Positions 14,066 to 63,885 of a stretch of 64,000 nt of DNA are shown here, in pieces. The DNA is taken from positions 1,037,386 to 1,101,385 of the forward strand of contig CAVXZA010000002.1 in assembly GCA_963766335.1 (NCBI GenBank). Reading direction: 5' to 3'. The position numbers and the translations under genes are program-made. This DNA comes from an uncultured Clostridia bacterium (GTDB lineage: Bacteria; Bacillota; Clostridia; DUPQ01). How positions within the stretch are numbered: the first letter of the stretch is position 1; each line of letters opens with the position of its first letter. The notes below the pieces were generated by a model that ran no database searches, was not told where the DNA came from, and saw only the letters and a list, made by a program, of their open reading frames with translations.

Positions 14066-14103
14066 CAGTTCCTCCCATACGCTACAATTATATACTAATT
14101 TAG

Positions 14104-14305: not shown

Positions 14306-14379
14306 AATTTTATTAATTTTCATAGAGTATAACAAAATAGAGGAAAGCCTGCAACCTTTTATGGTGCTATAATCTTATT

Positions 14380-30994: not shown

Positions 30995-31140
30995 AAATTA
31001 ATAGATTCTTCAGGGCAGGGTGAAATTCCCGACCGGCGGTAGAGTCCGCGAGCGTAAGCTGAACCGGTTAGATTCCGGTACCGACAGTATAGTCTGGATG
31101 AAAGAAGTAATTTTTTTATACCCCTGAGGAGGGGTTTCTT
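30995..31140 (+). promoter_or_regulatory. FMN riboswitch (RFN element) with terminator
   Basis: TTCTTCAGGGCAGGGTGAAATTCCCGACCGGCGGTAGAGTCCGCGAGC...CCGACAGTATAGTCTGGATGAAAGAAG matches the RFN consensus. It is followed by the hairpin ACCCCTgaggAGGGGT plus a T-tract. Confidence 0.8.
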
Positions 31141-41255: not shown

Positions 41256-41352
41256 TGTGCTTCCTCCTGTAATAGTAATCCGGGCATCCGCCTGGCCATA
41301 ATGTCAACTATGCTTATTTTTTAAAATAACCGTACTGGGTTCTATTTAAAAA

Positions 41353-43221: not shown

Positions 43222-43232
43222 TACCCTTCCTT

Positions 43233-45154: not shown

Positions 45155-45200
45155 AATTTACCTCATTCCGGATTTCATCATTTCCTGATTCAGGTTGAAA

Positions 45201-46241
45201 TCATATGTATAGTCCGGCGCTTAGCAAACCGTCGGTTTCCGGGTATCCGTGCATTAAGTTCAGGTTCTGTACAGCTTGTGAAGCCGCCCCTTTGCCAAGG
45301 TTGTCAATGGCTGAAATCACAATAATCCTGTTCATTCGTTCGTCGTAAAAGGGGGCGATGTCCGCAAAATTCGTTCCGGCGACGGCTTTAACTGACGGTA
45401 TGTCTCCATCTTCCTTGATCCTTATAAAAGTCTCTCCTTTATAATACATATTATATATATCAATTAAATCCTTGGTTTTCAGTGGCTTTTTTGCATTAGT
45501 ATAAATCGTAGCCGACATACCCCTTTTAAAGGGAGCCAGGTGGGGTGTGAATCCCGCGGTTACGGTTTTGCCTGCCAACAGTGACAGCTGCTCTTCAATT
45601 TCGGTTGTATGCCTGTGACCGGTTATTTTATACGGAGCAAAATTTCCGTCAACCTCACAGTAGGAGTAAGGTAGGCTGGCTTTTCGCCCGGCGCCTGAAA
45701 CACCGGATACTGCGCTTATATTAATAGTATTGATATCTATCAGATTATTTTCCAGCAGCGGTGCGAGGCCAAGGATTGAACAGGTGGGATAACAGCCGGG
45801 ATTAGCTATTAATGCCGCATCTTTGATTTTCTCGCGGTTAAGTTCCGGCAATCCGTAGACAGCCTTTTCAAGAAGGTCAGGGTATCCATGTGGAAGTCCA
45901 TATGTTTTTTCATATAATTCCGCTGAAGTGTACCGGTAGTCGGCGCTGAGGTCAACGACCTTTTTACCGGATGATATCAGTTTGAAGACGGCTTCCTGGC
46001 TTGCCGCATGAGGGAGTGCAGTAATAAAGCAATCTGCTTTCCCTGATATAACATTATAGTCAGTGGCTTCGCACACAAGGTCGCAGATACCGCTCAAACT
46101 GGGATAAACATCAGAAATTTTCCTGTCTTTGAAGGTTTTGGAAACAACGCAGGTTATCAAAAAACCGGGATGACCGGCAAGGAGCCTTATGCATTCAGCC
46201 CCTGCATAACCCGTAGCACCGATGATTCCTACTTTTATCAT
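45201..46241 (-). CDS. argC: N-acetyl-gamma-glutamyl-phosphate reductase
   Basis: Semialdehyde dehydrogenase fold with an active-site Cys (NPGCYPT). First gene of the operon. Confidence 0.9.
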   Translation of the reverse strand: MIKVGIIGATGYAGAECIRLLAGHPGFLITCVVSKTFKDRKISDVYPSLSGICDLVCEATDYNVISGKADCFITALPHAASQEAVFKLISSGKKVVDLSADYRYTSAELYEKTYGLPHGYPDLLEKAVYGLPELNREKIKDAALIANPGCYPTCSILGLAPLLENNLIDINTINISAVSGVSGAGRKASLPYSYCEVDGNFAPYKITGHRHTTEIEEQLSLLAGKTVTAGFTPHLAPFKRGMSATIYTNAKKPLKTKDLIDIYNMYYKGETFIRIKEDGDIPSVKAVAGTNFADIAPFYDERMNRIIVISAIDNLGKGAASQAVQNLNLMHGYPETDGLLSAGLYI

Positions 46242-46323
46242 TATTTTATCCTCCCGCTTGTTATTATACCAAATAGCATATTTTATAACTAAATTAAATA
46301 ATTTTTCATAATTATACAGAATT

Positions 46324-46339
46324 ATGCATAAAAATGCAA
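46324..46339. promoter_or_regulatory. putative ArgR/AhrC operator (ARG-box-like) upstream of argC
   Basis: ATGCATAAAAATGCAA resembles the TGnATwwwwATnCA ARG-box core. It lies about 85-100 bp upstream of the argC start in an AT-rich promoter region. Confidence 0.25.
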
Positions 46340-46500
46340 CATATTTTTATATCGGTTTTTCAAAATTTACTGTGCTTGGATAGTTTATGCAATTCATACA
46401 AATAGGTAATTGTTTTTTTGTAATAATCAACACTTATAACATAATAGTAAAAGTGTTAAGATTAAGTAGAAGTTTTTATAGAAAAACGGGAGGAATTAAA

Positions 46501-47625
46501 ATGGCAAAAGTTATAGTAAGAAACGTATATAAAAAGTATGAACCTTCACGTGGTGGAATTACCGCTGTATCCGACTTCAATCTTTCAATTGAAGACAAGG
46601 AATTCTTGGTTCTGCTAGGCCCATCAGGTTGTGGTAAAACAACAACACTCAGAATGATAGCCGGACTTGAAGATATAACCGCCGGTGAAATCTATATCGG
46701 AGATAAACTCGTTAATGACGTACAGCCAAAAGACAGAGACATCGCAATGGTTTTCCAGAATTATGCACTGTATCCCCATATGACGGTTTTCGACAATATG
46801 GCATTCGGACTTAAACTCAGAAGAACACCTAAAGATGAAATTAAACAGAGAGTTCATGAAGCCGCCAGGATTCTTGAAATCGAACATCTTCTTGACAGAA
46901 AACCAAAAGCACTATCCGGCGGGCAGCAGCAGAGGGTTGCACTCGGTCGTGCTATAGTCCGAGAACCAAAAGTATTCCTCATGGACGAACCGCTTTCTAA
47001 CCTTGACGCCAAGCTGAGGGGACAGATGAGGGTTGAGCTCACAAAACTTCACCAGAGATTGCATACAACGATTATCTTCGTTACACATGACCAGGTTGAA
47101 GCCATGACAATGGGTACCAGGATTGTTTGTATGAAGCTCGGATTCATCCAGCAGGTTGACATACCGCAGGTAATGTATGAAAATCCGGTTAATATGTATG
47201 TTGCAGGATTCATCGGAACTCCTCAGATGAACTTTATTGACGGTCTGATTACCGAAGACGGTAAAACTGTTTACCTCACCTTAGGCAATTCAAAGATTAA
47301 GCTTCCCGAAAGCAGGGCAGCTAAAATTACCGGCCAGGGTTACGACTTGAAGGAAGTTGTTATCGGCATGAGACCGGAGCATCTACATGATGAGCAAATG
47401 TATATTGATTCAATGCCCGGTGCAGTTGTTGATGCAAGCGTAGAAGTTGTGGAATTGATGGGACCCGAAGCACTTGTATATTGTGTAATTGAAGGAACAA
47501 ACATGATTGCACGTGTTAAACCTCATACAAAAGCAAGACCCGGCGATTCTATCAAAATGGCCATCGATACAAGCAGGATTCATATATTTGATAAAGAAAC
47601 AGAAAACGTGCTCTTCAACGAGTAG
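46501..47625 (+). CDS. sugar ABC transporter ATP-binding protein (MalK/MsmX/UgpC family), stand-alone
   Basis: Walker A GPSGCGKTT, LSGGQQQRVALGRA signature, a C-terminal TOBE/MalK regulatory domain, and a GGAGGAA RBS. Confidence 0.8.
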   Translation: MAKVIVRNVYKKYEPSRGGITAVSDFNLSIEDKEFLVLLGPSGCGKTTTLRMIAGLEDITAGEIYIGDKLVNDVQPKDRDIAMVFQNYALYPHMTVFDNMAFGLKLRRTPKDEIKQRVHEAARILEIEHLLDRKPKALSGGQQQRVALGRAIVREPKVFLMDEPLSNLDAKLRGQMRVELTKLHQRLHTTIIFVTHDQVEAMTMGTRIVCMKLGFIQQVDIPQVMYENPVNMYVAGFIGTPQMNFIDGLITEDGKTVYLTLGNSKIKLPESRAAKITGQGYDLKEVVIGMRPEHLHDEQMYIDSMPGAVVDASVEVVELMGPEALVYCVIEGTNMIARVKPHTKARPGDSIKMAIDTSRIHIFDKETENVLFNE

Positions 47626-47666
47626 TTTGTTAATTTGACTTCATCGCCAGATACATGAAAAATACA

Positions 47667-47707
47667 GCCACCGATATGCTAAAAAATCATTCGGTGGCTT
47701 TCTTTAT
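47667..47707 (+). terminator. rho-independent terminator after the ABC ATPase gene
   Basis: AGCCACCGA...TCGGTGGCT stem followed by TTCTTTAT. Confidence 0.5.
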
Positions 47708-47775
47708 GGAATGCTGCCCCTCCTCCGTTGTTCCAAATGTGTGGTATAATAGTCAGGAAGGATTTCGCGGGTGAT

Positions 47776-48339
47776 ATGGACAAGTTTTTAATTGCAGGAC
47801 TGGGGAATCCCGGGATAAGATACCGGAAAACACGCCATAACATGGGTTTTATGGCGCTTGACTATGTCTCGGAAAAATTTTCAGTAAAAGTTAAAAAATT
47901 AAAATGCCGCGCCCTGACAGGTGAAATTAACATCGACGGGGCGAAAGTTATCCTGGCAAAACCTCAGACATATATGAATGCAAGCGGCGAAAGCATCAGG
48001 GAGCTTCTAGCGTACTATAATTTAACCACGGATAACCTGATTGTCATCTATGATGATATGGACATACCTCTTGGGAAAGTCCGAATTCGAAAAAAAGGAG
48101 GGGCGGGAACCCATAACGGAATGAAATCACTCCTGTATCATCTGAAAACAGAGAACTTTATTAGAATACGCATCGGCATTAATGCAAATGAAGGTGAAGA
48201 TACAATCAGATATGTACTTAGCAAAATCACAAAAGACCAGCGCAAAGAAGCTTTCACAGGAATAGAAAAAGCCGCACAGGCATCTGTTGAAATCGTAAAA
48301 AACGGAATCAATGCAGCAATGAATAAATTTAATAAGTAA
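47776..48339 (+). CDS. pth: peptidyl-tRNA hydrolase
   Basis: The N-terminus LIAGLGNPG..Y..TRHNMGF is the Pth signature. Confidence 0.85.
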   Translation: MDKFLIAGLGNPGIRYRKTRHNMGFMALDYVSEKFSVKVKKLKCRALTGEINIDGAKVILAKPQTYMNASGESIRELLAYYNLTTDNLIVIYDDMDIPLGKVRIRKKGGAGTHNGMKSLLYHLKTENFIRIRIGINANEGEDTIRYVLSKITKDQRKEAFTGIEKAAQASVEIVKNGINAAMNKFNK

Positions 48340-48422: not shown

Positions 48423-51400
48423 ATGAAAATATTACTCAAACCGCTGCAGGACATCCCGCAGTTCGACGGGATTATAAAGACCATTTCAGCCGGAAAAGGA
48501 CCCGTTGGAGTCAACGGCCTGGTTGATCCGGCAAGGGCTATTTTCGCATATGCGCTTTTTCAGAAAACCGGAAGACGATGTCTAATACTAACCCACAGCC
48601 GGGTCAAGGCAAAAAAAATATATGAAGGACTGCGTATATTTGATTCCGACGGTGCATTGCATTTTCCCACAAGGGAACTGATGCCTTTCGAAATAGAAGC
48701 TCGAAGCCACGGTTATGAGACTGAAAGAGTAAATGCACTTTACAGATTCGCCATAAATGATTACTCGGTTGCCGTCGCTCCTATTGAAGCAATGTGCATA
48801 AGAATTCGGCAAAAAGGAGGAATTTCTTAAAAAAGTCATAAACATAGAGAAAGCAAAAGAGTATGAAAGGGACAAACTGTCCGAAGAGCCTTACTGGCAT
48901 CCGGTTATGAAAAATGCGACATGGTTGAAAGCGAAGGCCAGTTCGCGGTTCGCGGAGACATCTTTGATATATATTCACCCGGCAGCGACAGGCCATGCAG
49001 AATTAATTTTTTCGGAGATGAGGTAGAAAATATCAAATTTTTTGACCCGGGCACCCAGCTGTCGGATGAAGAAACTGCAATCTGTATTAATATTGCCTTG
49101 CAGCGAGCAGACCGGCTCACTAAAAGATATCATTGAAAAGTTAAAAGCAGTTCCAAATCCGCCAGCGCCGATTTCCTCGGATATAGAAAAGATTGAAAAC
49201 GGTCTTTTGCATTTTCCGATGGACAAACATTTCGCCTTGGTGGACGGAACCTGTTTTGCCACATCATATATAGATGAAGATACAATCATTATCCTTGATA
49301 ATGATAAACGCTGCCTGCGAAAAATGAATACCGTTCTTGAAAGAATACGGCACCACATGTGAAAAACTTCTTGAAACACAATCCGCCGTGCCTGAATCAT
49401 GCATGATGGTAGCCGGTCTGTTTGAATCAATGGGGAAAAGGGAACCTGGGATTATTATCCCCGACATAACCGGTCCGGATGACGAGTTTAGCCTTTACAG
49501 GCAATTTAGCATACTTACAAGGGAAAACCCGTCTTACGGCGGCAGGATGGACCTGCTTCTAGAGGACATCAGGAAATGGAAATCAAAAGGGCGCAGAACA
49601 GCTCTTATTGCACCGTCAAAAAAGAGCAGCCATATATTATCCGATTACCTTGCATCCAATAATATAGACATACACGGCCGAAACAATTATAACGGAGACA
49701 TACACGCAGGAACAGTTGTCATGCTGGACAACGGACCTGCTGAAGGATTTGAAATACTTGAAGCCGGCCTTTGTGTGGTCGGGAGCGGTAAAATTTTCAG
49801 AAAAAGCAAGAAAGAGCAGACAGAACGGAAAAAGCAAAAAGGCATGGATTTATTCGCTGACTTAAAACCAGGGGATTTCGTTGTCCATGATTACCATGGA
49901 ATAGGCAAATACATAGGTATAGAGAATATCAAAGCCGCGGGAATACGCCGCGATTATGTAAAGGTTGAATATAAAAAGAGCGACTACGTATATATACCGG
50001 TAGATAAACTTGATTCAATCCAAAAATACATTGGAAGCGGGGGAAGGGCCCCGAGGCTGTCAATACTGGGCGGCAAAGAGTGGGAGAATACAAAAGCGCG
50101 GGTTAAGGAATCCGTCAAGAACATTGCCAAAGAACTTGTTGAACTATATGCCAAACGTAAAGCTAACAAGGGGCACAGATATTCTGCCGATACAATATGG
50201 CAGGTGTCATTTGAAGAAGAATTCCCGTTTGAAGAGACAAACGACCAACTGCGCTGCATTGATGAAATAAAAGGGGATATGGAATCCGATATCATAATGG
50301 ACAGGCTTCTCTGCGGGGATGTAGGCTATGGAAAAACGGAAGTGGCGCTGCGGGCTGCATTTAAGGCGGTTATGGATGGAAGACAGGTGGCATTCCTGGT
50401 TCCTACAACTGTGCTTGCCTACCAGCATTACAATACATTTAAAAGCAGGATGAAGAATTTCCCTGTTAACATCGAACTTATGTGCCGTTTCAGAAGCAAA
50501 AAACAGCAGCAGCGGACATTAGAGGGTTTAAGGGCGGGAAGCGTTGACATTGTGGTCGGCACGCACAGGCTGCTTCAAAAAGACATTGTGTTCAAAAAGC
50601 TTGGACTGCTTGTAGTAGACGAAGAGCAGAGGTTCGGTGTAGAGCATAAAGAAACAATTAAGAACTATAAAAACGACATTGATGTCCTTACCCTGACTGC
50701 AACTCCCATTCCGCGGACGCTTCACATGTCGCTGTCAGGTATACGTGACATAAGCGTCATTGAAGATCCGCCTGCAAAGCGGTTCCCCGTCCAGACATAT
50801 GTAATGGAATATGACCCGGATGTAATAAGGGATGCAGTCGACCGTGAAATCAGCAGGGGAGGCCAGGTTTTCTACCTTTATAACCGTGTCAGGGAAATGG
50901 ACAGCAAGTATGCTAAACTTAAACAACTCCTGGGCGATGAGGTAAGGATAGGAATCGCCCACGGGCAGATGGATGAAAATAAGCTTGAAAATGTAATGGT
51001 TGATTTCATCAAAGGCGATTATGATGTCCTTCTATGTACAACAATTATAGAATCAGGCCTGGATATCCCGAATGTCAATACAATGATTATTGAAGACTCG
51101 GACAGGATGGGACTGTCGCAGCTCTACCAGATAAGGGGCAGGGTAGGCAGGTCCGACAAAGTCGCCTATGCATACATAACCCATAAACATGGGAAAGTTA
51201 TAACAGAGGACGCATCTAAAAGACTTGAAGCAATAAGGGAATTCACGGAGTTCGGTTCAGGATTCAAAGTGGCAATGCGCGACCTTGAAATCAGGGGCGC
51301 CGGAAATCTTCTCGGCGCAAACCAGCATGGACATCTTGAAAGGATTGGCTACGATCTATATGTAAGGATACTTAAACAGGGCTGTCAAGGAACTCGGCGG

Positions 51401-51915
51401 GGAAAGTTGAAGAAGAAGAGATTCGGACAGCTGCACTGTTGAACTTAATATAAATGCATTTATTGACAAAGAATACATCAGCAATGACCTGATGCGAATG
51501 GAAATGTATAAGAAAATAGCGGTTGTTTCAGATGAAAAACAGAAAAAGAGACTGCTTAGATGAAATGACAGACCGTTTCGGAACACCGCCTGCACGAAAC
51601 TATGGTGCTGCTTGAAGCGGCTCTTGTAAAAAACCTTGCAGCGGCATGTGGTATTGAATCCGTAACTAAGAAACAAATCAGATATAATATTCACTTTTGC
51701 AGAAGGACAGATTCCCGCCTCCTGAAATTCTTGCCAGGCTTCCTGAAATCCTGCCGGGAAGGGCGGTGGTCAGTATGGGAGTTAAGCCCGGAATCAGGCT
51801 TAATAATTTCAAACGGGAAGATGTAGATTTTTCGGCAATATATAAATTGCTGGCATGTATTGAAAATCAGCAAATCATAATATATAGAAACAGTATGTTA
51901 TCTTGCAAAAGATGA
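48423..51915 (+). pseudogene. mfd: transcription-repair coupling factor Mfd, disrupted by multiple frameshifts
   Basis: Mfd-homologous segments occur in alternating frames (48423-48830 f0, about 48815-48915 other frame, 48921-49136 f0, 49042-49362 f1, 49337-51442 f2, then at least four more frame changes to 51915). The helicase motifs DVGYGKTEVALRAAF and the GDFVVHDYHGIGKY RID region are recognisable. Confidence 0.8.
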
Positions 51916-52151
51916 TTATAAAACTATATTTATGATTAGAAATGTGCACAAAATCATTAGAAAAATCCTATATTTAACAAAAAGACAACATTTGTTACAA
52001 AATTGTAAAATTATTAATACATAATTATATAAAAATATCGCAAAAACACAATATTTTGTGGTATATTAGGGTATATAAAACACAAGTATTAGTGGTTCAT
52101 TCAAACTGTTGTCAATACAAGATTGGTCAATTTGCTTTATAGAATCTAAAA

Positions 52152-52177
52152 ATTGTTAAAAATTGTTAAAATATGTT
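52152..52177. repeat. short tandem direct repeat (AAAAATTGTTA x2) in the AT-rich intergenic region upstream of the pilin gene
   Basis: The sequence aaaaattgttaaaaattgttaaaat is seen directly. Confidence 0.6.
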
Positions 52178-52298
52178 ATTATAAGTTGCATTTTTTTTAT
52201 CGAAGTGTAATAATTAGTAGTAGATAAATGGGGATGTTAGCATAGATAAAACCCGGAAAGCATAATCCGGGACAACAAATTTTATGGAGGGTTACAAA

Positions 52299-52676
52299 AT
52301 GCTACAGAATTTAATGAGGAAAATGAAAAAAGGAAACAAGGGGTTCACTCTTGTTGAATTGATGATTGTTGTTGTAATCATCGGTATCTTGATTGCAATT
52401 GCAATTCCTATATACAGAATATCCAGACAACTGCAGAAAGAGAGCATGTCAGGCTAACATAAGAGCAATTATGTCACAGCTTGAAGTTTATAAAGCGGAT
52501 ACTAGATGCTGGAGACGGTATTATATCCATTAACAGCTGAATATGCAGACTTTCATAGACCATGCTATTTCGAGGGAGCAACACCTGAATGTCCAACTAG
52601 CTGACCAGGATATACTTATACCAGTGCAGTGGGGCAACTTATTCATTGACTTGTCCAAATGGACACACTAAGCTGT
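52299..52676 (+). pseudogene. pilA: type IV major pilin (PilA-like), frameshifted
   Basis: Class III signal MRKMKKGNKG/FTLVELMIVVVIIGILIAIAIP is followed, in other frames, by CQANIRAIMSQLEVYKADT and a C-terminal YQCSGATYSLTCPNGHTKL. There are at least 3 frame changes. Confidence 0.65.
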
Positions 52677-52769
52677 AAGTAGCAATGTACTTGTTAGTCA
52701 TTTAGTAATTTTATTTTCCCGGCGAGGTTATCCCGCCGGGGAATAAGTTTTATATTTCAGAACGGGTGG

Positions 52770-53283
52770 GGTATTTTTATGGATGAAAAAGAAAAAAAAT
52801 CCGGTTTTAAGAAGTTTTTAAAAGAAAACCGTTCCCTTGTATTTACCATTCCGGTATTTATAGTATTAGTAGTTGCTGTAATTTTGGTCTATGTTTTAAC
52901 AGGATAATAAGACAGCCGATAATCAGCCGGCTGCCACACCTACTCCTACTGCAACTGAGCAGCAGACTGAACCTACGCCTGCGCCTTCACAATCCGCATC
53001 AGAATCAAGTGGAACAGAAGTCACTACGCTTCCCCAGGATGAGCGCGATAAAGATGATTCTGAAATAATGCGGAATCCTTTTGCAGCCCCATACAAGGTA
53101 AGCGGCATCATATATGATGAAAAAGGCGGAAGCATTGCCATAATTGAAGCAGAAAACAAGACTTTCATTGTAAAAGCCGATGATCAGGTCGGCGAATATT
53201 TTAAAGTTTTAAATATAGAATCAGACAAGGTAGTTTTGGAAATAGAGGGCCAGGAAATTGTACTGGCCATTTCCGGTGAATGA
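52770..53283 (+). pseudogene. PilP-like pilus assembly protein (TM anchor + linker + beta domain), one frameshift
   Basis: MDEKEKKSGFKKFLKENRSLVFTIPVFIVLVVAV in frame 0 continues in frame +1 as a Pro/Thr/Gln linker and ...RNPFAAPYKVSGIIYDEKGGSIAIIE.... Confidence 0.4.
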
Positions 53284-53301
53284 ATATTGGAGGTGTTCTA
53301 A

Positions 53302-54182
53302 TTGGGACGCAGTAAAAAAACCAACACGATGATGAAAACGCTTGCCGTTGTTTTGGCAATGGCTGTTATTGTCGCTTTCGGAGGAACCGCCGCAGCAGCT
53401 ACGGGAGCTGTGCCGGCGGGCATCAGCTACCATGACGACACGGTATTCAAAGCTGACAAGGGTGCTGATGTATCTATTGAAATAGAAGATGCCGATATCA
53501 GGGACATACTGTCCCTTTTTGCGACTAAACTCGGTGTTAATATGGTATATCTTGGCCAAAGTTTTAAGACAAGTTATACCATATCTGAAGTTGATGCCAC
53601 GACAGCATTTGAGATATTTATCAAAAGCTCCGGTGTTAACGGGGAAGCGCTTAGCTTTATCCGCGACGGCGACCTTCTTTTGGTAGGTCCGGCCGGGGAC
53701 ATGGCCAATAGTTTTTCAGATATGCTGGTGTTCACAAGTTTTGAACTTGAGTACATGACGGCACAGGAACTTTCCGGATTATCTGAGCCAGCTGGGGATT
53801 TATGTTAACGAGCTTTACCATAGACCAGATGACTGACAGAATTTTTGTACAGGGTTTCCCATATGAAGTCGCAAAAGTTAATGAAGTGGTTAATATGCTG
53901 GACAATGATGCCTTTTATCCGGACGGCGGCACGGCATTTAACCTTGTTGCATATAACTTGAATTATATCAGCGCATCTACACTTGACGGCGTAATCGGCG
54001 AACTGGGAATAGAGGCTGATACCATTGAATTGGGATCAAGTCCTTCAACCTTATGGGTAAGTGCGGATACCGACCAGCATACAGTAATATCCCAGTTAAT
54101 AACAAAACTTGATACAGCAGCGAATATAAGCGATAACGAATTCGGTGTATACAGACTAAAATATATTAATATAGACTTGTAA
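53302..54182 (+). pseudogene. secretin-N-domain-like (PilQ/GspD N0/N1-like) protein, frameshifted near 53800
   Basis: Signal peptide present. IEIEDADIRDILSLFATKLGVNMVY resembles the secretin N0/STN domain. The second half, ending VYRLKYINIDL, is N1-like. The ORFs 53302-53808 and 53802-54182 are in different frames. Confidence 0.4.
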
Positions 54183-54190
54183 ACAATGCA

Positions 54191-54817
54191 ATGAGTGAGT
54201 TGGGTTTATGGACCACTGCAGAAGGTGAATCGGGCATGGTCACTGTAATACCGAATACAGTTTTAAGTGAAGACCCTTATGCAATACTGGTTAATTTCAA
54301 ATATATAGATAAAGAAATGGTAGATTTCCTGATTGCAGAGCTGGATACACCTTCAAATAATCCTGAAGACCCGGCATTCTTTATTTATACATTTACGAAT
54401 ATGTCTGCTGAAACAGCCCTCGGCAGGATTGATGCATTCGGTGGGAAAAAAGCGTTTGATTCAGATGAAGTTGAATTCAAGGAATTTTCATTCTCAGGAC
54501 TTGGCAAACAGCTTATGGTGCTTTGCACTAAGAGTGAAGAGGCTGATGTAAGAGCATTTCTTGCAGAGATTGATACTCCGGGTACAACGATGATAGTTGT
54601 TGTTGACACAAACGGCGGAGATATTCAGGCAAGAATCCGGCTGATTGACCGAATACCGCTTATTTCATATATATCCGGAGTGCCGGAAAATCATTTTAAA
54701 GTATCAGGAGACATATCAAAAAGCGCTTCACCGCAATATGTAATGTGGGTTGAGGATACACCTGAAAATATTGAAAAGGTTAAGGCTGCAATAGCAAATA
54801 TTGATTCAGGCGAATAA
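54191..54817 (+). CDS. hypothetical protein with secretin-N-like repeats (no beta-barrel secretin domain)
   Basis: 208 aa. It has similar short alpha/beta N-domain-like segments (EADVRAFLAEIDTP...IQARIRLIDRIPL). Confidence 0.35.
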   Translation: MSELGLWTTAEGESGMVTVIPNTVLSEDPYAILVNFKYIDKEMVDFLIAELDTPSNNPEDPAFFIYTFTNMSAETALGRIDAFGGKKAFDSDEVEFKEFSFSGLGKQLMVLCTKSEEADVRAFLAEIDTPGTTMIVVVDTNGGDIQARIRLIDRIPLISYISGVPENHFKVSGDISKSASPQYVMWVEDTPENIEKVKAAIANIDSGE

Positions 54818-54835
54818 TGACCGGCTGAGGATAAA

Positions 54836-56014
54836 ATGACAATATACCAAAGAAACGAAAGTGATAAATATGTGACATCCATTGTGGAAATGCTCCGGCC
54901 GATGACTGAAAGAAAGATTTCTGACCTTCATCTTGTTGCCGGAGTTCCACCCTGTTATAGAGTAAACACAGACCTTGAGCAGCAGGACATGCCTAAGCTT
55001 ACGCCGGAGAACCTGAACTATCTTCTATCCGATATATTATCGCCTATTGACTGGGAACGTCTGGATAAGGAAATGGAATTGGATTTTTCGTATTCAATAC
55101 CCGGCATAGCCAGATACAGAGGAAATGTTATGAAGCAGAGAGGTTCATATGCAGTTGTTTTCAGGGCAGTTCCTTATGAAACTCCTCAGTTCGGAACCCT
55201 TGGACTTCCGGATCAGTAAGGGAGTTATGTAACTTAAAAAGGGGCTTGGTACTCGTTACCGGGCCAACCGGAAGTGGGAAATCCACAACACTGGCTGCCA
55301 TGATTGATATAATCAACAGAACAAGGAAGCTTAAATATTGTAACAATTGAAGATCCCATAGAGTATCTTCACAGGCACAAAAAATCAACAGTCAGGCAGA
55401 GAGAAATAGGGGCAGATACACACTCTTTCGGAAAGGCACTAAGGCATGTATTACGACATGACCCGGATGTAATACTGATTGGTGAAATGCGTGACCTTGA
55501 CAGTATATCCATTGCCTTGACAGCAGCAGAAACGGGACATCTTGTTTTTTCAACATTGCACACCCAGACGGCACCGCTTACTATAAACAGGATAATTGAT
55601 GCATTTGGTGAAAATGAAAGAAAGCAGATAAGACAGCAGCTGGCATCTACGGTTCAGGGAGTTGTGTCACAGCAGCTTATGACGAGAAAAGGCGGCGGCA
55701 GGATAGTCGCATGTGAAATGATGAAAGGTGTTCCGGCAATAAGAAACCTAATAAGAGAAGGAAAGGAACACCAGCTATACAGTGTTATGCAGACGGGCCA
55801 GGAATACGGAATGCAGACAATGGACTATGCTTTGGTTGATATATATAGAAAAGGAAAAATCAGTGAAAAAACACTGTATGAACATTGCATTGACATCAGG
55901 AAGTTGAAAGACTTCTTGACCAAGAAAAGCATAATCCAGTCCAGACGGATGGCGATTGGTAAAGGAGCAATAGATGCCCATATACAAGTACAAATGCATA
56001 ACAAGAAACAGTGA
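54836..56014 (+). pseudogene. pilT: twitching-motility ATPase PilT, frameshifted (at least 2 sites near 55210 and 55315)
   Basis: PilT N-domain in f1. Walker [23 protein letters not shown] in another frame. EDPIEYLH...REIGADTHSF...DPDVILIGEMRD...AAETGHLVFSTLHT in a third frame. Confidence 0.7.
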
Positions 56015-57180
56015 AACCATATTGGGCAAGATAAGTGCTACCAGCACCAATGCTGCTATTGACAGACTGCGGAAAATGAACTTACACTGTAAATATAAAG
56101 CAATCACGCTTTGATGGATTGCAGGGTTTTTTAAAAATGAAAGACCTGTTAAAGTAGGTGATCTTGGTCTTTTCAGCAGGCAGCTTGCATCTATGATTGG
56201 TGCAGGTATTCCGGTTACCAGGGCAATATCAACAATAGCAAGGCAGACAAAAAATCCATCATTTAAAAAAGCTCTTGAAAATATAGCATCAAATGTTGAA
56301 AGCGGAATGAATCTGACTGATTCATTCAGTGGTTATCCGCATATATTTGATGATTTATATGTAAAACTAATTGAATCGGGTGAAATAGGCGGAATGCTTG
56401 AAGGTTCACTGCTCAGAATTGCAGAACAGTTGCAAAAAGACAAAAGCTTAAAGACAGTATTAAATCAGCGACATTTTATCCCAAGATGGTACTTGGCTTT
56501 GCAGTTGTGGTAGCTATCGGAATGATGCTGTTTCTTGTTCCGACTTTCAAGGGAATGGTTAAAGCTGAAGCAGAGATTCCGGGTATAACTCAATTTGTAT
56601 TTGGTCTTTCGGATTCATTTAGAGCCAACTGGTATTGGTATATTATCGGAGTAATTGTTATATTTGCAGCAATTAAAATATTTATATCAAGTAAAATTGG
56701 CAAAAAAATCTGGGATAAAATCAAACCTAAAATACCTGTTTTCGGGCAGATAACAAAAAAAACCATAATTGCCCGTTTTTCAAGAACTTTTTCAACTTTA
56801 CTTGATGGAGGTATACCTGTAATTCAGGCAATGCAAAGTGCCGGAGATACTGCCGGAAGCACAGTTGTCGCAATAAAAATAAGAGAAGCCAGTTTGAACG
56901 TAGAACAGGGTAATAGAATTTCAGATGAACTTGAAAAGCAGGATATATTTCCCGGTACAGTTATACATATGATAGCGGTAGGTGAAGAAACAGGGCAGCT
57001 TCCTGAATTACTGGAAAGGGTTGCCGGGTTTTATGAAGAAGAGGTTGGAACTTTATCAAAGACACTTTCGTCCGTAATAGAACCACTTATGCTTGTGGTT
57101 GTTGGTCTTATTGGTAGGAGGGATACTGATATCCTTGTACCTTCCGATATTCACAGCTGTATCGATCAAATGTAATGAGG
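55978..57180 (+). pseudogene. pilC: type IV pilus platform protein PilC (GspF family), frameshifted (at least 4 sites)
   Basis: The N-terminus MPIYKYKCITRNSETILGKISATSTNAAIDRLRKMNLH and two GspF domains lie in different frames. The C-terminal LVGGILISLYLPIFTAVSIK is recoverable only in a third frame. Confidence 0.7.
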
Positions 57181-57187
57181 TGTTGAT

Positions 57188-58127
57188 ATGATTATAAAAA
57201 GAATAGCAGGGGTTGAGTTCAACGATGATACTGCTAAGGCGGTAGAAATTTATGGTTCTGAAAAGTCGCATAAGATTACTGCTCTTGGCAATGTTATATA
57301 TCTGAGAATGTCATAACTGACGGTGTCTTGGTAAATAATGAAGCCGCTATTGCTGTATTGAAGGAATTATGGAAAAAATATTCTTTTAAAACCAAGGAAG
57401 TAATATTTGGTGTTGACAATAAATATGTGCTTGTCAGATATGCAGATATTGTAAGAACAGCTGATAAAAAGTTTCAAAATGATGTAGAGGCTCAGATACA
57501 GCAGTTTCTGCCTGTTGATAAAAATTCAGTAGAGACCGATTACTTCCCCTGAATGAACACCGAAGACGAGGAAGGTAAAAAGAAAACAAAAACACTAATT
57601 GTTGCTGCAGGGAAGAAAATGCTGAGTGAATATATTGAGATATTCAAAGGAGCAAACTTAGAATAGAGGATATTGATGTTAATACATTGGCAATATACAA
57701 ATTGATTCCGGAAATGAAAAAGACAAAGGAACGGTTATAATTAATTTAAAAAAGATATGTTCAATCTTCTGATTGTAAGAGATGGTCAGCCGTTACTGGC
57801 AAGAAATATAATGATTGATACAAGCAGTGCACTTAATGAAACCGAATTTGTTCAGGAATATTTTGAAGCAATAAACAAAGACATAATATCTTCCCTTGCA
57901 TATTACAATTCAATTACCAGGATTATATTGAGAATATATATATAACCGGATATGGTGTATGGAACGAGGGAATGGTACAGTTCCTAAGAGAAACAACCAA
58001 AGCAGATGTAAAAGTTGTTAATCCTTTCATAAATGAAAAAAACAAGTCGGGAACACCTGACGTGCCAAGACCCTATGAATTTGCTGTTGCATATGCACTG
58101 GCACAGAGGGGATTGGAGAGTGAATGA
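57188..58127 (+). pseudogene. pilM: pilus assembly protein PilM (actin-like ATPase), frameshifted (at least 6 sites)
   Basis: PilM-like pieces are scattered over three frames: MIIKRIAGVEFNDDTAKAVEI, LVNNEAAIAVLKELWKK, EEGKKKTKTLIVAAGKKMLSEYIEIFKGANL, IENIYITGYGVWNEGMVQFLRETTKADVKVVNPF. Confidence 0.65.
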
Positions 58128-58128
58128 T

Positions 58129-58583
58129 ATGACAAGATTAGAATCAGCCTTCTTCCTGCTGAACTAAAAAGACAATCCTCCATGATGAAGATATGGACAA
58201 TACTTGCCCTTGTATTGGCAATACTAGCCTTAATCATGTTGGCTGGAAACATTCTCATTAATTTCTGGTTGAAAATACCGGTTGCAGAACTGGAGTCTTT
58301 GAAGAATCAGAACAAAAGCATGACTGAAAATATTGGTAGGTTGTACTATATACAGGAAATGTTTGATGCGATAGAACTCAACAATAGAATTATTAAAGAA
58401 TTAAGCGGGAATAATCCCGATTGGTCTTATCTCTTAGATGAAACTCGCGACATGACAGTATATGGTATAAATATGAGTCGAATGGAAATTATCACAGTCG
58501 GAGAAGGACAGGGATGTTCCATAACCGGAAACACGAGGAATGTAGACAATTTGAATGTTTGGATCAAACATATGGAATCTTGA
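58129..58583 (+). pseudogene. pilN: pilus assembly protein PilN, frameshift immediately after the start codon
   Basis: KIRISLLPAELK (PilN INLLP-type motif) plus a TM helix and coiled coil. ATG 58129 is in a different frame from the body (58131 onward). Confidence 0.55.
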
Positions 58584-58708
58584 TGGCGTAGAATCGGTTT
58601 CCATATGATAAATATAACAACCACGCCTTCATCCGGCGGTGGATTAATTTTCCATTTTGATGCGATGGTAATCATTGCACGTTGGAACCAGGAATAGGAG
58701 GAAGAGAG

Positions 58709-59288
58709 ATGCCGAAGTATAAAAAGAAAAATACTGTTATGAAATCAGATAATAAAAACGGCAAAAAAGGGTCTGCTATTGGGAACCGTGGTATTTCTAC
58801 TGTCGACATTATAATAATCATAGTCGCCGGTATTGTTATAATTGTATCCGGAATATTTCTCTTCATGAATTTCAGAACATTGAAGCAGGTAAACGAGGAC
58901 ATTACTGAAATGAAACAGATTATTGATGCAAAAGCAGGATACCCTTGATAAACTGATTGAACTTGGTCAAAACGAGGACGCCTTAAAGGAAAATTACGAG
59001 CGGAATAAAATGTTTGTTCCGGAAGAAAAAGATGAAGTAGGAATAATAGCAGATGTTACAGGAATAGTGGAGAATGACGGAGGAATTTTCAGAACAATAA
59101 CCTATAGTGCAGAAATTGTTAAGGAAAACGGAGTTACTGATGTCCCATTCACAATAAGGATAAACAGCACTTATGAACAATTAAGTGAGATTGTTAAAAA
59201 CTTGGGCAGAACCAACAGGTTGTATGTAATTGATTCAATTACATATTATAGAAACAAGCAGCGAAATTCCATTTTAAGCACGATATAG
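58709..59288 (+). pseudogene. pilO: pilus assembly protein PilO-like, one frameshift near 58930
   Basis: AGGAGGAAG RBS. An N-terminal TM helix and coiled coil (58709-58948) continue in another frame as the C-terminal domain (58923-59288). Confidence 0.5.
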
Positions 59289-59332
59289 AGATGCATGCAT
59301 ACTATAAAAAACCATAAATAGGAAGCGAATTA

Positions 59333-61026
59333 ATGCAAGGAAGAATAAGAAGTCAGAAACTCGGGGAAGTGCTAATCCAGAAGGGCACCATAACGGCGGA
59401 CCAACTGGAAGAGGCGCTTTCTTTGGTAAAGAACACAACAGATAAGTCCATGCTTGTTGGCGAGGCTCTTGGTTGAACTTGGTTATTGTTCTGAAAAACA
59501 TATTGCCAGGACCATGGCGCATAAATCCAAAGCCAAGTATGCTAATCTTAATGATGTTAAGATTAACATGCAGGCATCCAATCTGCTGTCGCCTGGCCTT
59601 GCTTTAAGATATGGCGCTCTTCCCATTGGATTTCAGCAGAAGACAATGAGAAACTCATTGTTGCCATGCAGAATCCCACGGATCTTATGACAATAGATGA
59701 CTTGATTCTTTTAACAGGTTATGATATAGAACCTGTAGTGGTAGAGGACAGGCAGCTGCGTAACAGCCTTAGAAAATTTTACAAACATGAGCACCGCTGA
59801 CATTGATGCATATGATGAAGAAGATTTTAATACAGCTGAGGAAGAAGAAGATACACTGGCCCGGCCGGCTGTAAAGCTTGCCAATCAGGTATTAAACCAA
59901 GCCATGAAATCCCTTGCAAGTGATGTTCACATAGAACCACACGAAAAAAAATTAAGATAAGATATAGAATTGACGGTGTATCTGCATGACATCATGCAGC
60001 AGTCCGATAAGGATGTCCGCTTCAATAGTATCCCGATTTAAGGTTCTGGGCAATATGGATATTGCGGAACGCAGGGTTCCGCAGGACGGCAGGATGACTT
60101 TCAGAAGCGAAGGCCGTATTGCTGATATAAGGATAGCTACTCTGCCTACTGTTTTTGGAGAAAAAGTTACGCTTAGGATTGTTGACAGGAACTCCAAGCT
60201 TTTAACATTAGATAAATTGGGAATGCCGGAGAAACAACGCGAAGCTTTTTATCAGACAATAAAAGCGCCATATGGCTTTATATTGATTACCGGACCAACA
60301 GGAAGCGGAAAAAGCACAACGCTTTATGCAGCTCTTACGAGATTGAATTCAGCGGATAAAAACATTATTACACTAGAAGATCCGGTTGAAAGACGAATTG
60401 ACGGGCTTAATCAGATACAGATAAACGAAAGAGCAGGGCTGATTTTTTCTTCCGGCCTTAGGTCTATATTAAGAAGTGACCCGGATATAGTTATGATTGG
60501 TGAAATCAGGGACCGTGAAACTGCTAAGATTGCAGTTGAGTCTGCATTGACAGGCCATTTGGTTTTGTCAACCCTTCACACTAATAATTCAGCGGGTGCA
60601 TTAACAAGACTAGGGGAAATGGGTGTAGAACCATACCTTACTTCATCTTCCTTAATAGGGGTAATAGCCCAAAGGTTACTAAGGGTTCTTTGCGATGATT
60701 GTAAAAAGGAGTATACTATAAGCAGGAATGACCTGCTAAAGACATTCCCGGATTTTCCGATAGAGGACAAAGAGAAGGAGATTAAAATATATAAAGCCGA
60801 AGGTTGCGTTCAATGTAACAATACAGGCTATAAAGGCAGAATGGGTGTTTATGAATTCCTTACTGTAACGGATACAATGCAGGAACTTATATTAAAAAAA
60901 GCATCTACCCTGGATATTGAGGAAACTGCCATAAATGAAGGGATGGTCACTCTAAGGGCCGACGGTATGAACAAGATTAAAGAAGGTCGTACGTCGATTG
61001 AAGAATTCTTCAGGGTCATAGTCTAA
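59333..61026 (+). pseudogene. pilB: type IV pilus assembly ATPase PilB (GspE family), frameshifted in the N-terminal 650 nt (at least 5 sites); ATPase core intact
   Basis: The N1 domain MQGRIRSQKLGEVLIQKGTITADQLEEALSL... is broken over three frames. The ORF 59986-61026 has Walker [13 protein letters not shown], His box and tetracysteine motifs. Confidence 0.75.
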
Positions 61027-61043
61027 CGATTGGAGTGATGATT

Positions 61044-62084
61044 ATGAAAAAATATCTTGGAAACAACAAAGGATGGGCAATGGCGCTTGTCATTGTGTTG
61101 CTTGCAATAGTACCGATTTTTGTGGTTGCATTATACACATATTCGTCAACATCAACCAAAATTGTTCTTAAGCAGATTGAAATAGAAAGGGCAAGGTATC
61201 TTGCGCGTTCGGGTATGGAGGCCGCTGTTTATGTTTGGCAGGATTCGGAACTTGATGCCAAGCCAACCGGCAGCCTGGAGCGCGTTTATCTTACAGCTGA
61301 TGGTGTTTTTGCCAGACAGTCCACTTTGGGCGCTGATGCTATTGCGGCAAGTCTTGGCTATGTGGATGTTACCATTACATTTAATAATGATAATTCCAGC
61401 GATGAATATTTAACAACCAAAATTGAAGCTGAAGGCATTGCAGAAGGTACAGGTTCCAGAATGACTGCAACATCCTTACCCTATTTGGATGGTGATTCAA
61501 CGGGCTGGTACAATAACAACTCAGGTGAATTTAACACTAGCAACGGAGACATCAGCAGGACTATTGCGGACCCAATTGGTGCCACAGTAACATATTTTGA
61601 TTTAGAGGGTGTAGTCACCTGTGATGCAAATGGTGCCTTTACTTTCCAGGATGGGGAGACAGGTATACTTGTTGATACAATTTTCTTTAATGACCCGGTG
61701 GATCTTACGGACGGAAATGACAAATTATTATTCATTACTGCAAAGAAAGTAATCTTCCGGGATGAAGTTAATTTATCAGATGGAGGAGATTATGAATCCC
61801 TGATTCTCCATGCAGCTGCTTTAAATGCTATAGAGGTAGCTGGAAAAACAGGAAAATACGGTGCTGTATATTTCGGCGGAGATGTTACATTAAATGGTTC
61901 AACCATAATTCCCGCCGGAACAAATTACTATTATAAGAGCCGGACAGATGGCGTTGATTTAGTCTCGTGGGCAAACGGGGTATATTCCGCTGATGACAGT
62001 ATCTTTTGGATGATACCTTCATCGGGAGATCAAAATGCTTTTACCCCGAGTGAGGCATCCAGCATATATTTTATATATGAATAG
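61044..62084 (+). CDS. PilX-N-like minor pilin / pilus-associated protein
   Basis: N-terminal NKGWAMALVIVLLAIVPIF plus IEIERARYLARSGMEAAV resembles the PilX_N domain. Intact ORF with a GGAG RBS. Confidence 0.45.
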   Translation: MKKYLGNNKGWAMALVIVLLAIVPIFVVALYTYSSTSTKIVLKQIEIERARYLARSGMEAAVYVWQDSELDAKPTGSLERVYLTADGVFARQSTLGADAIAASLGYVDVTITFNNDNSSDEYLTTKIEAEGIAEGTGSRMTATSLPYLDGDSTGWYNNNSGEFNTSNGDISRTIADPIGATVTYFDLEGVVTCDANGAFTFQDGETGILVDTIFFNDPVDLTDGNDKLLFITAKKVIFRDEVNLSDGGDYESLILHAAALNAIEVAGKTGKYGAVYFGGDVTLNGSTIIPAGTNYYYKSRTDGVDLVSWANGVYSADDSIFWMIPSSGDQNAFTPSEASSIYFIYE

Positions 62085-62097
62085 GAGATGATTTAAA

Positions 62098-63885
62098 ATG
62101 AAAAGGATTTTAAAAAATAATTTAGGAATGACACTGGTAGAAGTCTTGTTGGCTATTCTGATATTTGTTCTAATGATTTGGACTTTCGCGCCCTTTGTAG
62201 CAGCTACTTTTAAACAAATAGCCCAGGCAGGCACACTGCATGTTGAGCTTTCTGAAGATGTTAGCAATATAGACGGCCAGCTTGCCGATGAATTTTTCGG
62301 GGCCCCTAGTACATTTCCCGTGAAGGTTGGGGGCGATGATAACATAGATGTTAATGGAGTTCATCTTACCAGCGGACAACTCCATACTTTCTATTCCGGC
62401 ATAACATCATATATCACCACTGATGACATACTATATGAGGGATATGGGTCCGATGACTTTTACACCGGGTTTTATTCAATTGGCTTCCTTCCGGAAGTAT
62501 CTAATAAAAAGTTTTTCAAAAACCAGCATACTTGGGTTGTTGAGCTAGTCGGTAAGGATGGATTTATATATATGGTGGATGAGGAGATTGATGTGGTTCA
62601 ACAGGATGGAAATCCTCCGGGATTTGATAAAAATGATATAGATCCTGACACTGTTGATGACTTGTCAGGCGTATTCATTGTAGCAAGCCAGTTTCCCGAT
62701 GGTGCAGGAGGTAATCCTGACAAGATTGCTTATATATGCATAGTTCCGGATAAGTACGGGTTGGATAATACCAACTCTCCATATGGATTAGCAATAAAAT
62801 CAAAAGACAAGGGACAGACTTTTGTTGATGAACAAATACCAATTAACGTCATGCTGCCCCTGTATCAGGCCGTTGGCGAAGATGGTTGGGAAAGGATTGC
62901 AAGTCATATCGATTACTGGGTTGATAAGCATGAGTACCATGATCCCGATTACGGGGACGAGGGTATTGATGTAATAAGACTTCCGGAGAATGTCGATTTT
63001 TATGATGTCATGTGGTATGAAGATGATTCTATAGGATTATACATAACTGTCGGAGACGACGGCAATCTCTGGTACAGATACCATGAATCAGACTGGATTG
63101 AAATGGATTTAGTTGTCTCAGGCGACCTCAACAGGATTAAACGCCTCGGAGGTATGTTTGTAGCAATCGGATCGAATGGTACTGTTATAACATCAAATGA
63201 TTTGTCAATATCAACAGACCCTGCAGATATGGGAACAGACCCTTCAGACCCAATGTCATGGGGAACTAACATGGTTACAATTTCGGGAACACCGTCAACA
63301 AAGGATTTAACCGCATTTTCGTATAATTCATCCGTCGGTTATGTAATTATGGCTTCCGATGGCACGGTTTATACTTCATCGGATTTGTCGACCTACACAG
63401 AACATAGTACCGCTGCATCAGGAATAACAGATGCTTCTGTCACTTCGGTTATAATAAATGACATGGTATGGATGGGAAGCCACTTTATTGCCGTAGGCGA
63501 CGACAATTATATAGCTGTTTCTCCAGACGGAACAAACTGGACTATACTTGAACCGTCATCTACAATTGATTCGCCGAACGGATTTGATGATTTTAACTGT
63601 GTATTCGTTAATAGAAGCCAGGGATTTATACTCGGCGACAGCGGCCAGATTCACATGATTGGTCTTGGCGGTGATGTAGGGTCATGGACATGGACAACTG
63701 TTAGAGCCCATAGTGAAGGCGGGGAAAATCTTTATGACATGTCATATTCCCGAAGGGCTTATGTAGTTGTCGGAGAAGACGGCAAGGTAATGTATTCATT
63801 AAACGGAACGACATGGACGGACACAAACAAGATGGATGGCTTTGATACCGAAAAAGATATATTTGCAGTTGCAGGCAGGGAATAA
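62098..63885 (+). CDS. large prepilin-type (class III signal) protein with C-terminal BNR/Asp-box-like repeats, candidate pilus tip adhesin
   Basis: N-terminal NNLG/MTLVEVLLAILIF prepilin cleavage/methylation-type segment. The C-terminal half has repeated S-x-D/N-G-T-x-W(T) motifs (SPDGTNWT, SLNGTTWT, GSWTWTT) and D/NGTV(I/Y)TS repeats. Confidence 0.55.
   Translation: MKRILKNNLGMTLVEVLLAILIFVLMIWTFAPFVAATFKQIAQAGTLHVELSEDVSNIDGQLADEFFGAPSTFPVKVGGDDNIDVNGVHLTSGQLHTFYSGITSYITTDDILYEGYGSDDFYTGFYSIGFLPEVSNKKFFKNQHTWVVELVGKDGFIYMVDEEIDVVQQDGNPPGFDKNDIDPDTVDDLSGVFIVASQFPDGAGGNPDKIAYICIVPDKYGLDNTNSPYGLAIKSKDKGQTFVDEQIPINVMLPLYQAVGEDGWERIASHIDYWVDKHEYHDPDYGDEGIDVIRLPENVDFYDVMWYEDDSIGLYITVGDDGNLWYRYHESDWIEMDLVVSGDLNRIKRLGGMFVAIGSNGTVITSNDLSISTDPADMGTDPSDPMSWGTNMVTISGTPSTKDLTAFSYNSSVGYVIMASDGTVYTSSDLSTYTEHSTAASGITDASVTSVIINDMVWMGSHFIAVGDDNYIAVSPDGTNWTILEPSSTIDSPNGFDDFNCVFVNRSQGFILGDSGQIHMIGLGGDVGSWTWTTVRAHSEGGENLYDMSYSRRAYVVVGEDGKVMYSLNGTTWTDTNKMDGFDTEKDIFAVAGRE

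Follow-up and report, generated by a model that had tools for sequence, protein, structure and literature searches.

Gene content of the locus

The window, that is, the whole stretch of DNA analysed, comprises 64,000 nt from an uncultured Clostridia bacterium. Toward its end, the gene of peptidyl-tRNA hydrolase is followed on the forward strand by the gene of the transcription-repair coupling factor and by a type IV pilus locus. The features are as follows, in window coordinates:

47776..48339, + strand: pth (peptidyl-tRNA hydrolase), intact, the left clean flank; full-length match to Pfam PF01195
48423..51873, + strand: mfd (transcription-repair coupling factor), full length and colinear; 11 indels at 48810, 48889, 49077, 49336, 51371, 51405, 51427, 51555, 51595, 51665 and 51711
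52299..52670, + strand: pilA (type IV pilin with a GFTLVE N-terminus), 3' end approximate; at least 4 frameshifts, at 52416, 52439, 52507 and 52532
52779..53283, + strand: pilP-like gene, 165 aa; 1 frameshift at about 52905
53302..54817, + strand: 504-aa pilus-operon protein with weak Secretin_N similarity; 3 frameshifts at about 53779, 53810 and 54174
54836..55962, + strand: pilT (retraction ATPase); 3 frameshifts at about 55214, 55330 and 55895
55974..57180, + strand: pilC (platform protein); 5 frameshifts at about 56085, 56125, 56451, 57107 and 57167
57188..58127, + strand: pilM; 7 indels at about 57296, 57550/57561 (a compensating pair), 57652, 57711, 57743 and 57919
58128..58697, + strand: pilN; 3 frameshifts at about 58137, 58578 and 58606
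58709..59317, + strand: pilO; at least 2 frameshifts, at about 58925 and 59283
59333..61026, + strand: pilB (assembly ATPase); 6 frameshifts at 59468, 59634, 59762, 59949, 59981 and 60006
61035..62084, + strand: first gene 3' of pilB, intact, the right clean flank; no Pfam family

The sites in pilA were placed by three-frame translation and alignment with the pilin of L002, and that in the pilP-like gene by alignment with the orthologues of L162 and L081. An Rfam search of the pilA leader matched no family. The genes named in the earlier note (mfd, pilA, pilT, pilC, pilM, pilN, pilO and pilB) are all present; its list was nevertheless incomplete, as it omitted the 165-aa pilP-like protein and the 504-aa Secretin_N-like one.

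Extent and type of the frameshifts

Frameshift-aware protein-to-DNA alignment with intact relatives (L001 and L161 for Mfd, L081 and L162 for the pilus locus) revealed at least 45 frame-breaking indels between 48,810 and 60,006. They are distributed over 10 consecutive genes: mfd, pilA, the pilP-like gene, the gene of the 504-aa Secretin_N-like protein, pilT, pilC, pilM, pilN, pilO and pilB. The description of mfd and the pilus genes as shattered by more than 25 reading-frame changes was thus confirmed and extended. The indel density is about 0.4% across the 11.2-kb patch (48.8-60.0 kb). In the ORF listing, only fragments occur within 48.4-60.0 kb, and long ORFs tile the remainder of the window. 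The public record holds the fragments P0001 (679 aa) and P0121 (346 aa), both on the 2,450,829-nt contig; the frameshifts are therefore a property of the deposited assembly.

All indels in the 10 genes are of 1-2 nt without exception (24 insertions and 21 deletions). No sequence has been lost from these genes, and all of them are colinear with their orthologues. For Mfd, all 1143 of 1143 codons could be aligned with P0005 of L001 without in-frame gaps, P0002 of L161 being aligned as well; the intact Mfd proteins of the relatives comprise 1107-1216 aa. The frame-corrected PilT shares 91% identity with PilT of L162. If the indels are artefacts, correction would yield single ORFs of about 1146 aa (Mfd), 165 aa (pilP-like), 504 aa (Secretin_N-like), 375 aa (PilT), 401 aa (PilC), 315 aa (PilM), 186 aa (PilN), 204 aa (PilO) and 562 aa (PilB). 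Insertions and deletions did not cluster significantly relative to each other along the block.

The frameshifts are distributed unevenly over the block. The mfd core, 49337-51370, is frameshift-free (P = 0.008 for the 2,035-nt indel-free gap in the conserved part of Mfd), and so are the last 340 codons of pilB, 60007-61026, encoding the ATPase domain.

The block contains no unambiguous nonsense substitutions, in line with the earlier claim that the disruptions are indels rather than in-frame stops. The apparent in-frame stop at 51408 was better read, in the alignment with a closer reference, as a nearby pair of compensating indels. On direct reading of the sequence, the apparent TGA at 57550 was likewise better accounted for by the compensating indels 57550/57561. 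A further candidate, an N-terminal pilC frameshift at 55973 in the alignment with L081, was rejected as an artefact of the upstream extension of the L081 ORF.

Flanking genes and relatives

The same alignment test was applied to 9 genes upstream (38,980-48,336) and 2 genes downstream (61,044-62,595). Each gave one full-length single-frame match to relatives with zero frameshifts, so that the flanks are indeed intact, as had been stated. The pth product is a 187-aa single-frame match to pth of L161 and L001. The gene at 61035..62084 matches its L163 orthologue in a single frame, all length differences being in-frame. Overlapping ORF pairs further upstream correspond to distinct complete Pfam domains.

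In the comparison with the orthologous locus in relatives, proposed in the earlier note as a check, all the syntenic pilus loci fetched consist of unbroken single ORFs. Nearly all of the Mfd and PilB homologues listed are full length. The relatives appear, judging from the sample names, to originate from soda-lake samples. Searches of genome, metagenome and protein collections found no sequence of the same species; the best amino-acid matches reach 92%, 89% and 92% (Mfd core 92%, PilB 89%).

The sharp boundaries of the patch and its length of about 11 kb, near the typical size of a long read, could arise from a spliced-in piece of lower quality whose source is a different assembly, a different strain or just one read, introduced for example when a gap was filled, a scaffold patched or a path bridged through a minor strain. 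This would be a sub-type of artefact distinct from a polishing error on the same data. In L165-L168, the closest relatives by the ABC protein, synteny breaks directly after the ABC gene, which would agree with splicing at this place; the neighbourhood is therefore rearranged within the group. Against such a piece, the ABC-pth-mfd gene order is common to L001 and L002, and no repeats or junction signatures were found at the patch edges. Furthermore, identity to relatives is similar within and outside the patch, and the clean 2-kb Mfd core would be unexpected from a single spliced-in read. A spliced-in piece is considered very unlikely.

Conservation of the frame-corrected proteins

In the frameshift-dense segments of Mfd, none of 35 columns conserved at 95% or more deviates. 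At the 80% columns, 12 of 85 deviate, which equals the level of the intact relatives. Lineage-specific changes in these segments (3/140 and 0/58) are below those of most intact relatives compared and exceed those of no clade. The N-terminus of PilB shows no deviations at 41 conserved columns, and its differences are common to more distant relatives. Frame-corrected Mfd and PilB are conserved like their intact relatives, invariant columns included. An excess of non-synonymous change on the lineage, which would indicate relaxed constraint, was not found.

These data bear on the possibility that the indels are real and that Mfd and the type IV pili have been lost by recent pseudogenisation. The frameshifts are present in the deposited assembly, cultured bacteria can often do without pilus and competence genes, and sequence by itself proves no error. 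However, such decay would leave nonsense substitutions, of which 8.7 would be expected and none was found (P(0) = 1.7e-4); this expectation uses the substitution-to-indel ratio of about 5:1 from a published regression (PMC4978911). No deletion exceeds 2 nt, and neither a deletion bias nor a long tail of sizes is seen among the 24 insertions and 21 deletions. Among 396 deletions in real bacterial pseudogenes, the average size is about 19 nt, and 131 remove a single nucleotide (PMC6054270). Conserved sites carry no extra amino-acid change. A single gene takes up to 11 indels, yet none falls in pth, which lies 84 nt upstream, or in any of the other genes outside the block, and two unrelated functions are affected solely through their adjacency.

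The reductive-genome pseudogenes of the leaf-nodule symbionts Ca. Burkholderia (PMC6054270) likewise have multiple frameshifts per gene. Unlike the present block, real pseudogenes display deletion bias, long-tailed indel sizes, nonsense mutations, faster amino-acid change and genome-wide scatter, none of which occurs here. Genuine decay is accordingly regarded as very unlikely. Of the two origins offered in the earlier note, local consensus error is strongly favoured. Real coordinated decay with loss of Mfd is disfavoured because of the indel-only spectrum of 1-2 nt, the full-length colinearity and the undiminished conservation of the frame-corrected proteins.

Recent loss of Mfd and the pilus might also follow from a localised burst of indel-only mutation across the 11-kb tract, for example during error-prone repair or recombination synthesis. 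Such a burst would have to leave behind no substitutions and no larger deletions, and the chance of it is slim.

Sequence context of the indel sites

The earlier note placed several of the indels at short homopolymers. This association is not borne out: 3 of 39 sites adjoin runs of at least 4 nt vs 6.2 expected by chance, and the mean longest run is 2.38 at the sites vs 2.52 at random positions. Contact with an A5-A8 or T6 run is limited to a few sites. Local GC content was not significant as a driver of the sites.

In some bacteria, phase variation of pilus genes is a classic phenomenon. Here, slipped-strand mispairing would find its simple repeats in the few A5-A8 or T6 runs touched by sites. 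The deficit of sites at runs of 4 nt or more (3/39 vs 6.2) points in the opposite direction, and a repeat search of the block detected no tandem or simple-sequence tracts. Moreover, there are many sites per gene, and mfd is hit too. Phase variation can be given next to no weight here.

The tetranucleotide CTTA is enriched at the sites (8 vs 1.5 expected, family-wise P = 0.013) on the coding strand only. For CTT[AG], 12 of the 39 sites have a copy no more than 5 nt away vs 4.05 expected, again on the coding strand only. The inserted base copies its neighbour in 3 of 18 insertions vs a fraction of 0.53 in simulated random insertions. In 10 of 18, it forms a transition pair with the next base (0.20 in the simulation). 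The CTT[A/G] and transition-pair statistics partly depend on aligner tie-breaking; CTT|A|AAC, for example, is also readable as the extension of an A-run. The pattern of inserted bases and the site context are unlike spontaneous slippage and would fit a collapse of strain variants or a failure of polishing. That the inserted bases are mostly not neighbour duplications, unlike slippage mutations, also argues against genuine decay.

The coding-strand motif raises the question of recoding, in which programmed +1/-1 ribosomal frameshifting or transcriptional slippage would restore the proteins, for instance by a +1 slip of tRNA-Leu on CUU-A or CUU-G. Six of the DP-called +1 sites read N-CTT-R, where a slip from CUU to UUR would restore the conserved protein; the site at 51555, CTT-AGA, resembles the CUU-AGG of Ty1. 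About 33 other sites, however, are without the motif, and 21 would have to be shifted in the other direction. A gene with as many as 11 sites would yield hardly any product. Known programmed frameshifts are limited to one per gene and show conservation. None of the present sites is conserved, the orthologues being unbroken (nearly all of the listed Mfd and PilB homologues and all syntenic pilus loci fetched), and a stimulatory context common to the sites is absent. Several sites share CTT-A or CTT-G, with Leu, with the programmed +1 CUU-N sites of prfB (CUU-UGA) and Ty1 (CUU-AGG). The latter are single in their gene, conserved and provided with a slow A-site codon, whereas the block has many unconserved sites of both signs. 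The probability of recoding is close to nil.

The sites prefer the less conserved parts of the proteins (P = 0.003 for all genes, P = 0.02 within the patch only). A flank-identity test for indels at synonymous positions gave no support, the reduced conservation around the sites acting as a confounder.

Origin of the frameshifts

In all likelihood, the frameshifts are errors in the deposited consensus and not mutations of the organism, which very probably possesses intact Mfd and pilus genes. Short indels far outnumber substitutions (at least 45 indels, 0 unambiguous nonsense substitutions and no excess of amino-acid change), and the coding sequence is otherwise full length and conserved in all 10 genes. 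As mfd and the pilus operon have unrelated functions and both lie in the block, its cause is tied to position rather than function.

Some observations count against an artefact. The best-known consensus errors of nanopore and HiFi data typically show the homopolymer enrichment that is lacking here. For a faulty patch with such sharp limits to occur in 64 kb of otherwise clean sequence, a special circumstance is needed, which can only be guessed at.

The size of the 2.45-Mb source contig suggests a long-read or hybrid assembly. The 11.2-kb patch would have retained uncorrected 1-2 nt indels while the rest of the contig was polished to high accuracy. This could arise from two diverged variants of the segment in the sequenced population: either the variant reads would have been collapsed or the polishing reads would have remained unmapped, and misaligned variant sites would turn into insertions and deletions. 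Collapse of such putative variants would account for the scarcity of sites in conserved stretches, for the CTT[A/G] context at the codon level and for the transition pairs of inserted and next bases. Alternatively, coverage of the patch may have been low, or a small number of long reads may have served to fill a gap or form a bridge here. Both causes are plausible as the exact mode of failure.

It is well known that long-read errors can split genes (PMC12007338). The block resembles the errors of long-read and hybrid assemblies addressed by Kastor (PMC12007338) in having 1-2 nt indels and essentially no substitutions, in adjacent fragments that jointly cover the full orthologue, and in lying on a megabase contig. 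Such errors are usually genome-wide and concentrated in homopolymers, whereas here they are limited to 11 kb and not associated with homopolymers. In long-read assemblies, the collapse of alleles is a documented source of precisely this kind of indel error and of seeming frameshifts (PMC8445201). In Trypanosoma brucei Tb427, nearby variants shift the read alignments, which leads to indel errors in the collapsed consensus (PMC8445201). Tb427 is a diploid eukaryote; in the present case, two co-existing putative strain variants or reads from a non-identical population would be required.

The feature is thus most likely a flag of sequence quality and not of biology, and it matters mainly for quality control. 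Genome annotation would call Mfd and the whole pilus machinery pseudogenes, which would mislead claims about the loss of transcription-coupled repair, motility or competence in a lineage of Clostridia. Were the indels real, it would be remarkable for an indel-only process to have removed the pili along with Mfd, which is nearly universal; the sequence evidence argues otherwise. If haplotype collapse is the true cause, the patch would mark local population diversity around the pilus locus, a modest biological lead.

Frameshifted block and its intact counterparts

According to the ORF listing, the plus strand carries only fragments from 48.4 to 60.0 kb, and long ORFs tile the rest of the window. 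Pfam and homology identified an ABC ATPase gene and pth upstream of the block and the ATPase half of PilB in its final fragment. Intact references were provided by three Mfd loci of relatives (L001, L002 and L161) and by complete pilus loci (L081 and L162/L163). The comparison with orthologous loci suggested in the earlier note was run with these references. Past mfd and pilA, the relatives carry eight genes in the order tabulated below, from pilP-like to pilB, each as a single ORF.

Table. Genes of the block: protein length in relatives and number of indels in the window
Gene; length in relatives; indels
mfd; –; 11
pilA; –; at least 4
pilP-like; 165 aa, single ORF; 1
Secretin_N-like; 504 aa, single ORF; 3
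pilT; 375 aa, single ORF; 3
pilC; 401 aa, single ORF; 5
pilM; 315 aa, single ORF; 7
pilN; 186 aa, single ORF; 3
pilO; 204 aa, single ORF; 2
pilB; 562 aa, single ORF; 6

The Secretin_N-like gene lies at these coordinates:
53302-54817 (+), 575-2089 in L162: 504-aa pilus-operon protein conserved among these Clostridia relatives, with weak Secretin_N similarity and without the secretin pore domain

Indels were mapped by a purpose-written banded protein-to-DNA aligner permitting 1- and 2-nt insertions and deletions, and the calls were cross-checked against nucleotide alignments. At least 45 indels were found between 48,810 and 60,006 (24 insertions and 21 deletions, every one of 1-2 nt). All genes of the block are colinear with their orthologues, and Mfd aligns over 1143/1143 codons with no in-frame gaps. 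In the same test, nine genes in 38,980-48,336 and two in 61,044-62,595 each matched relatives over the full length in a single frame; where ORFs overlap in pairs further upstream, each member is a complete domain of its own. With such clean like-for-like controls on both flanks, the block of frameshifts is confirmed far beyond chance. The deposited protein fragments P0001 (679 aa) and P0121 (346 aa) sit on the public 2,450,829-nt contig, so the frameshifts were already present in the deposited sequence rather than created in the window.

The disruptions had been described as indels rather than in-frame stops, and this holds. Apparent stops at 51408 and 57550 are better read as nearby compensating indel pairs, the former with the closer reference L161 and the latter by direct reading of the sequence, which leaves no unambiguous nonsense substitution in the genes of the block.

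Evidence against natural mutation

The block, real as an observation, most probably does not reflect real biology. The earlier note left the choice between consensus error and genuine decay of mfd and the pilus genes; the former is most likely, with uncorrected errors left in one local stretch of a long-read-derived or hybrid contig, and decay is very unlikely. Natural mutation is disfavoured by several independent features. A published regression of indel rates against base-substitution rates (PMC4978911) corresponds to one indel for roughly every five substitutions, so that 45 indels would be accompanied by about 225 substitutions in the patch. A stop would result from 4.3% of the substitutions possible in these codons, and about 8.7 nonsense mutations were expected versus 0 observed (P = 1.7e-4). 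Bona fide bacterial pseudogenes carry more deletions than insertions; only 131 of 396 deletions are 1 nt long, and deletion length averages about 19 nt (PMC6054270), whereas the indels here never exceed 2 nt.

Decay should also have eroded conserved positions, and this was not seen. In the frameshift-dense segments of frame-corrected Mfd, deviations occur at 0/35 columns conserved at ≥95% and at 12/85 at the 80% level, as in intact relatives. Lineage-specific changes there (3/140 and 0/58) are below most intact relatives compared and not above any clade. The frame-corrected PilB N-terminus deviates at 0/41 conserved columns, and where it differs from the nearest clade, more distant relatives share the difference, so these changes are phylogenetic signal rather than damage. 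Nearly all Mfd and PilB homologues listed are full length. Finally, mfd and the pilus operon are unrelated units affected because they are adjacent, that is, by position and not function; no disruption reaches pth, 84 nt upstream, or the genes that follow pilB. The Mfd and pilus genes of this genome should therefore not be scored as lost.

Sequence context of the indel sites

Short homopolymers, to which several indels had been attributed, do not explain the sites: 3/39 touch a run of ≥4 versus 6.2 expected. Phase variation was excluded, the sites being without repeats. CTTA was enriched (8 versus 1.5 expected, family-wise P = 0.013), as was CTT[AG] (12 versus 4.05, P = 6e-4). The reverse complement showed no enrichment, so the context is that of the coding strand at the codon level (leucine). 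Programmed frameshifting at CUU-A/G could be considered, and six sites resemble the motif appealingly; however, it is missing at about 33 sites, the opposite shift would be required at 21, and none is conserved.

Spontaneous +1 insertions mostly duplicate a neighbouring base. Calibrated against simulated random insertions put through the same aligner, the called inserted base matched a neighbour in only 3/18 cases (0.53 in simulation), a pattern unlike slippage. It and the following base made a transition pair in 10/18 (0.20), and it was C before T in 6/18 (0.04). With references at about 76% nucleotide identity, however, the exact inserted base is ambiguous, some CTT|A|AAC sites being equally readable as A-run extensions. 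The sites avoid the conserved Mfd core (2,035-nt gap, P = 0.008) and lie preferentially in protein parts of lower conservation (P = 0.003 for all genes; P = 0.02 for the patch only). Neither GC content nor the way insertions and deletions follow one another stood out.

Collapsing two diverged alleles into one consensus is known to let nearby variants shift the alignment of reads, with indel errors and apparent frameshifts as the outcome (PMC8445201). The site-context features appear to fit this scenario: where the alleles differ by C/T in the first base of a leucine codon (CTR/TTR), CTTR could arise, and stretches identical between alleles would remain clean. The other plausible cause is a stretch that had low coverage or was gap-filled or bridged. 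Splicing-in of the patch from another strain is less likely, as relatives show comparable identity within the patch and beyond it; a search for junction repeats at the patch found none.

Neighbouring genes and regulatory elements

Two riboswitches lie upstream of the block, the first probably forming a riboflavin uptake unit with the gene that follows it:
31002-31113 (+): FMN riboswitch (113 bits), immediately 5' of the gene for an ECF-transporter S component (31165-31812)
14141-14310 (-): lysine riboswitch (87 bits), upstream of the minus-strand gene 13064-14140

A further element precedes the pilin gene:
52150-52298 (+), 5330-5460 in L161: pilA leader, strongly conserved across four relatives (including L001 and L002) above the surrounding intergenic DNA

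Its hairpin ACCCGG...CCGGG has arms varying in compensatory fashion in L001 and L002. The leader has no Rfam match, even at E ≤ 1, and may act on pilA as a regulatory element of an unclassified kind.

The window gene order is common to L001 and L002. In L165-L168, the closest relatives by ABC ATPase protein (91% identity), synteny is kept upstream from carB to the ABC gene and ends right after it (window 47625-47776; L165-L168 from about 11125), where genes for a PucR-like regulator, ftsE, ftsX, an M23 peptidase and ctpB replace pth-mfd-pilus. The closest Mfd relative, L161, carries at 119-532 an IS200/IS605-type Y1 transposase gene just upstream of pth, at the place of the window's ABC ATPase.

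Two long intact ORFs without a Pfam family follow pilB:
61035-62084 (+): conserved in L163, with a hydrophobic, pilin-like N-terminus and several in-frame length changes relative to the L163 orthologue
62098-63885 (+): second long ORF

Both may encode pilus-associated proteins.
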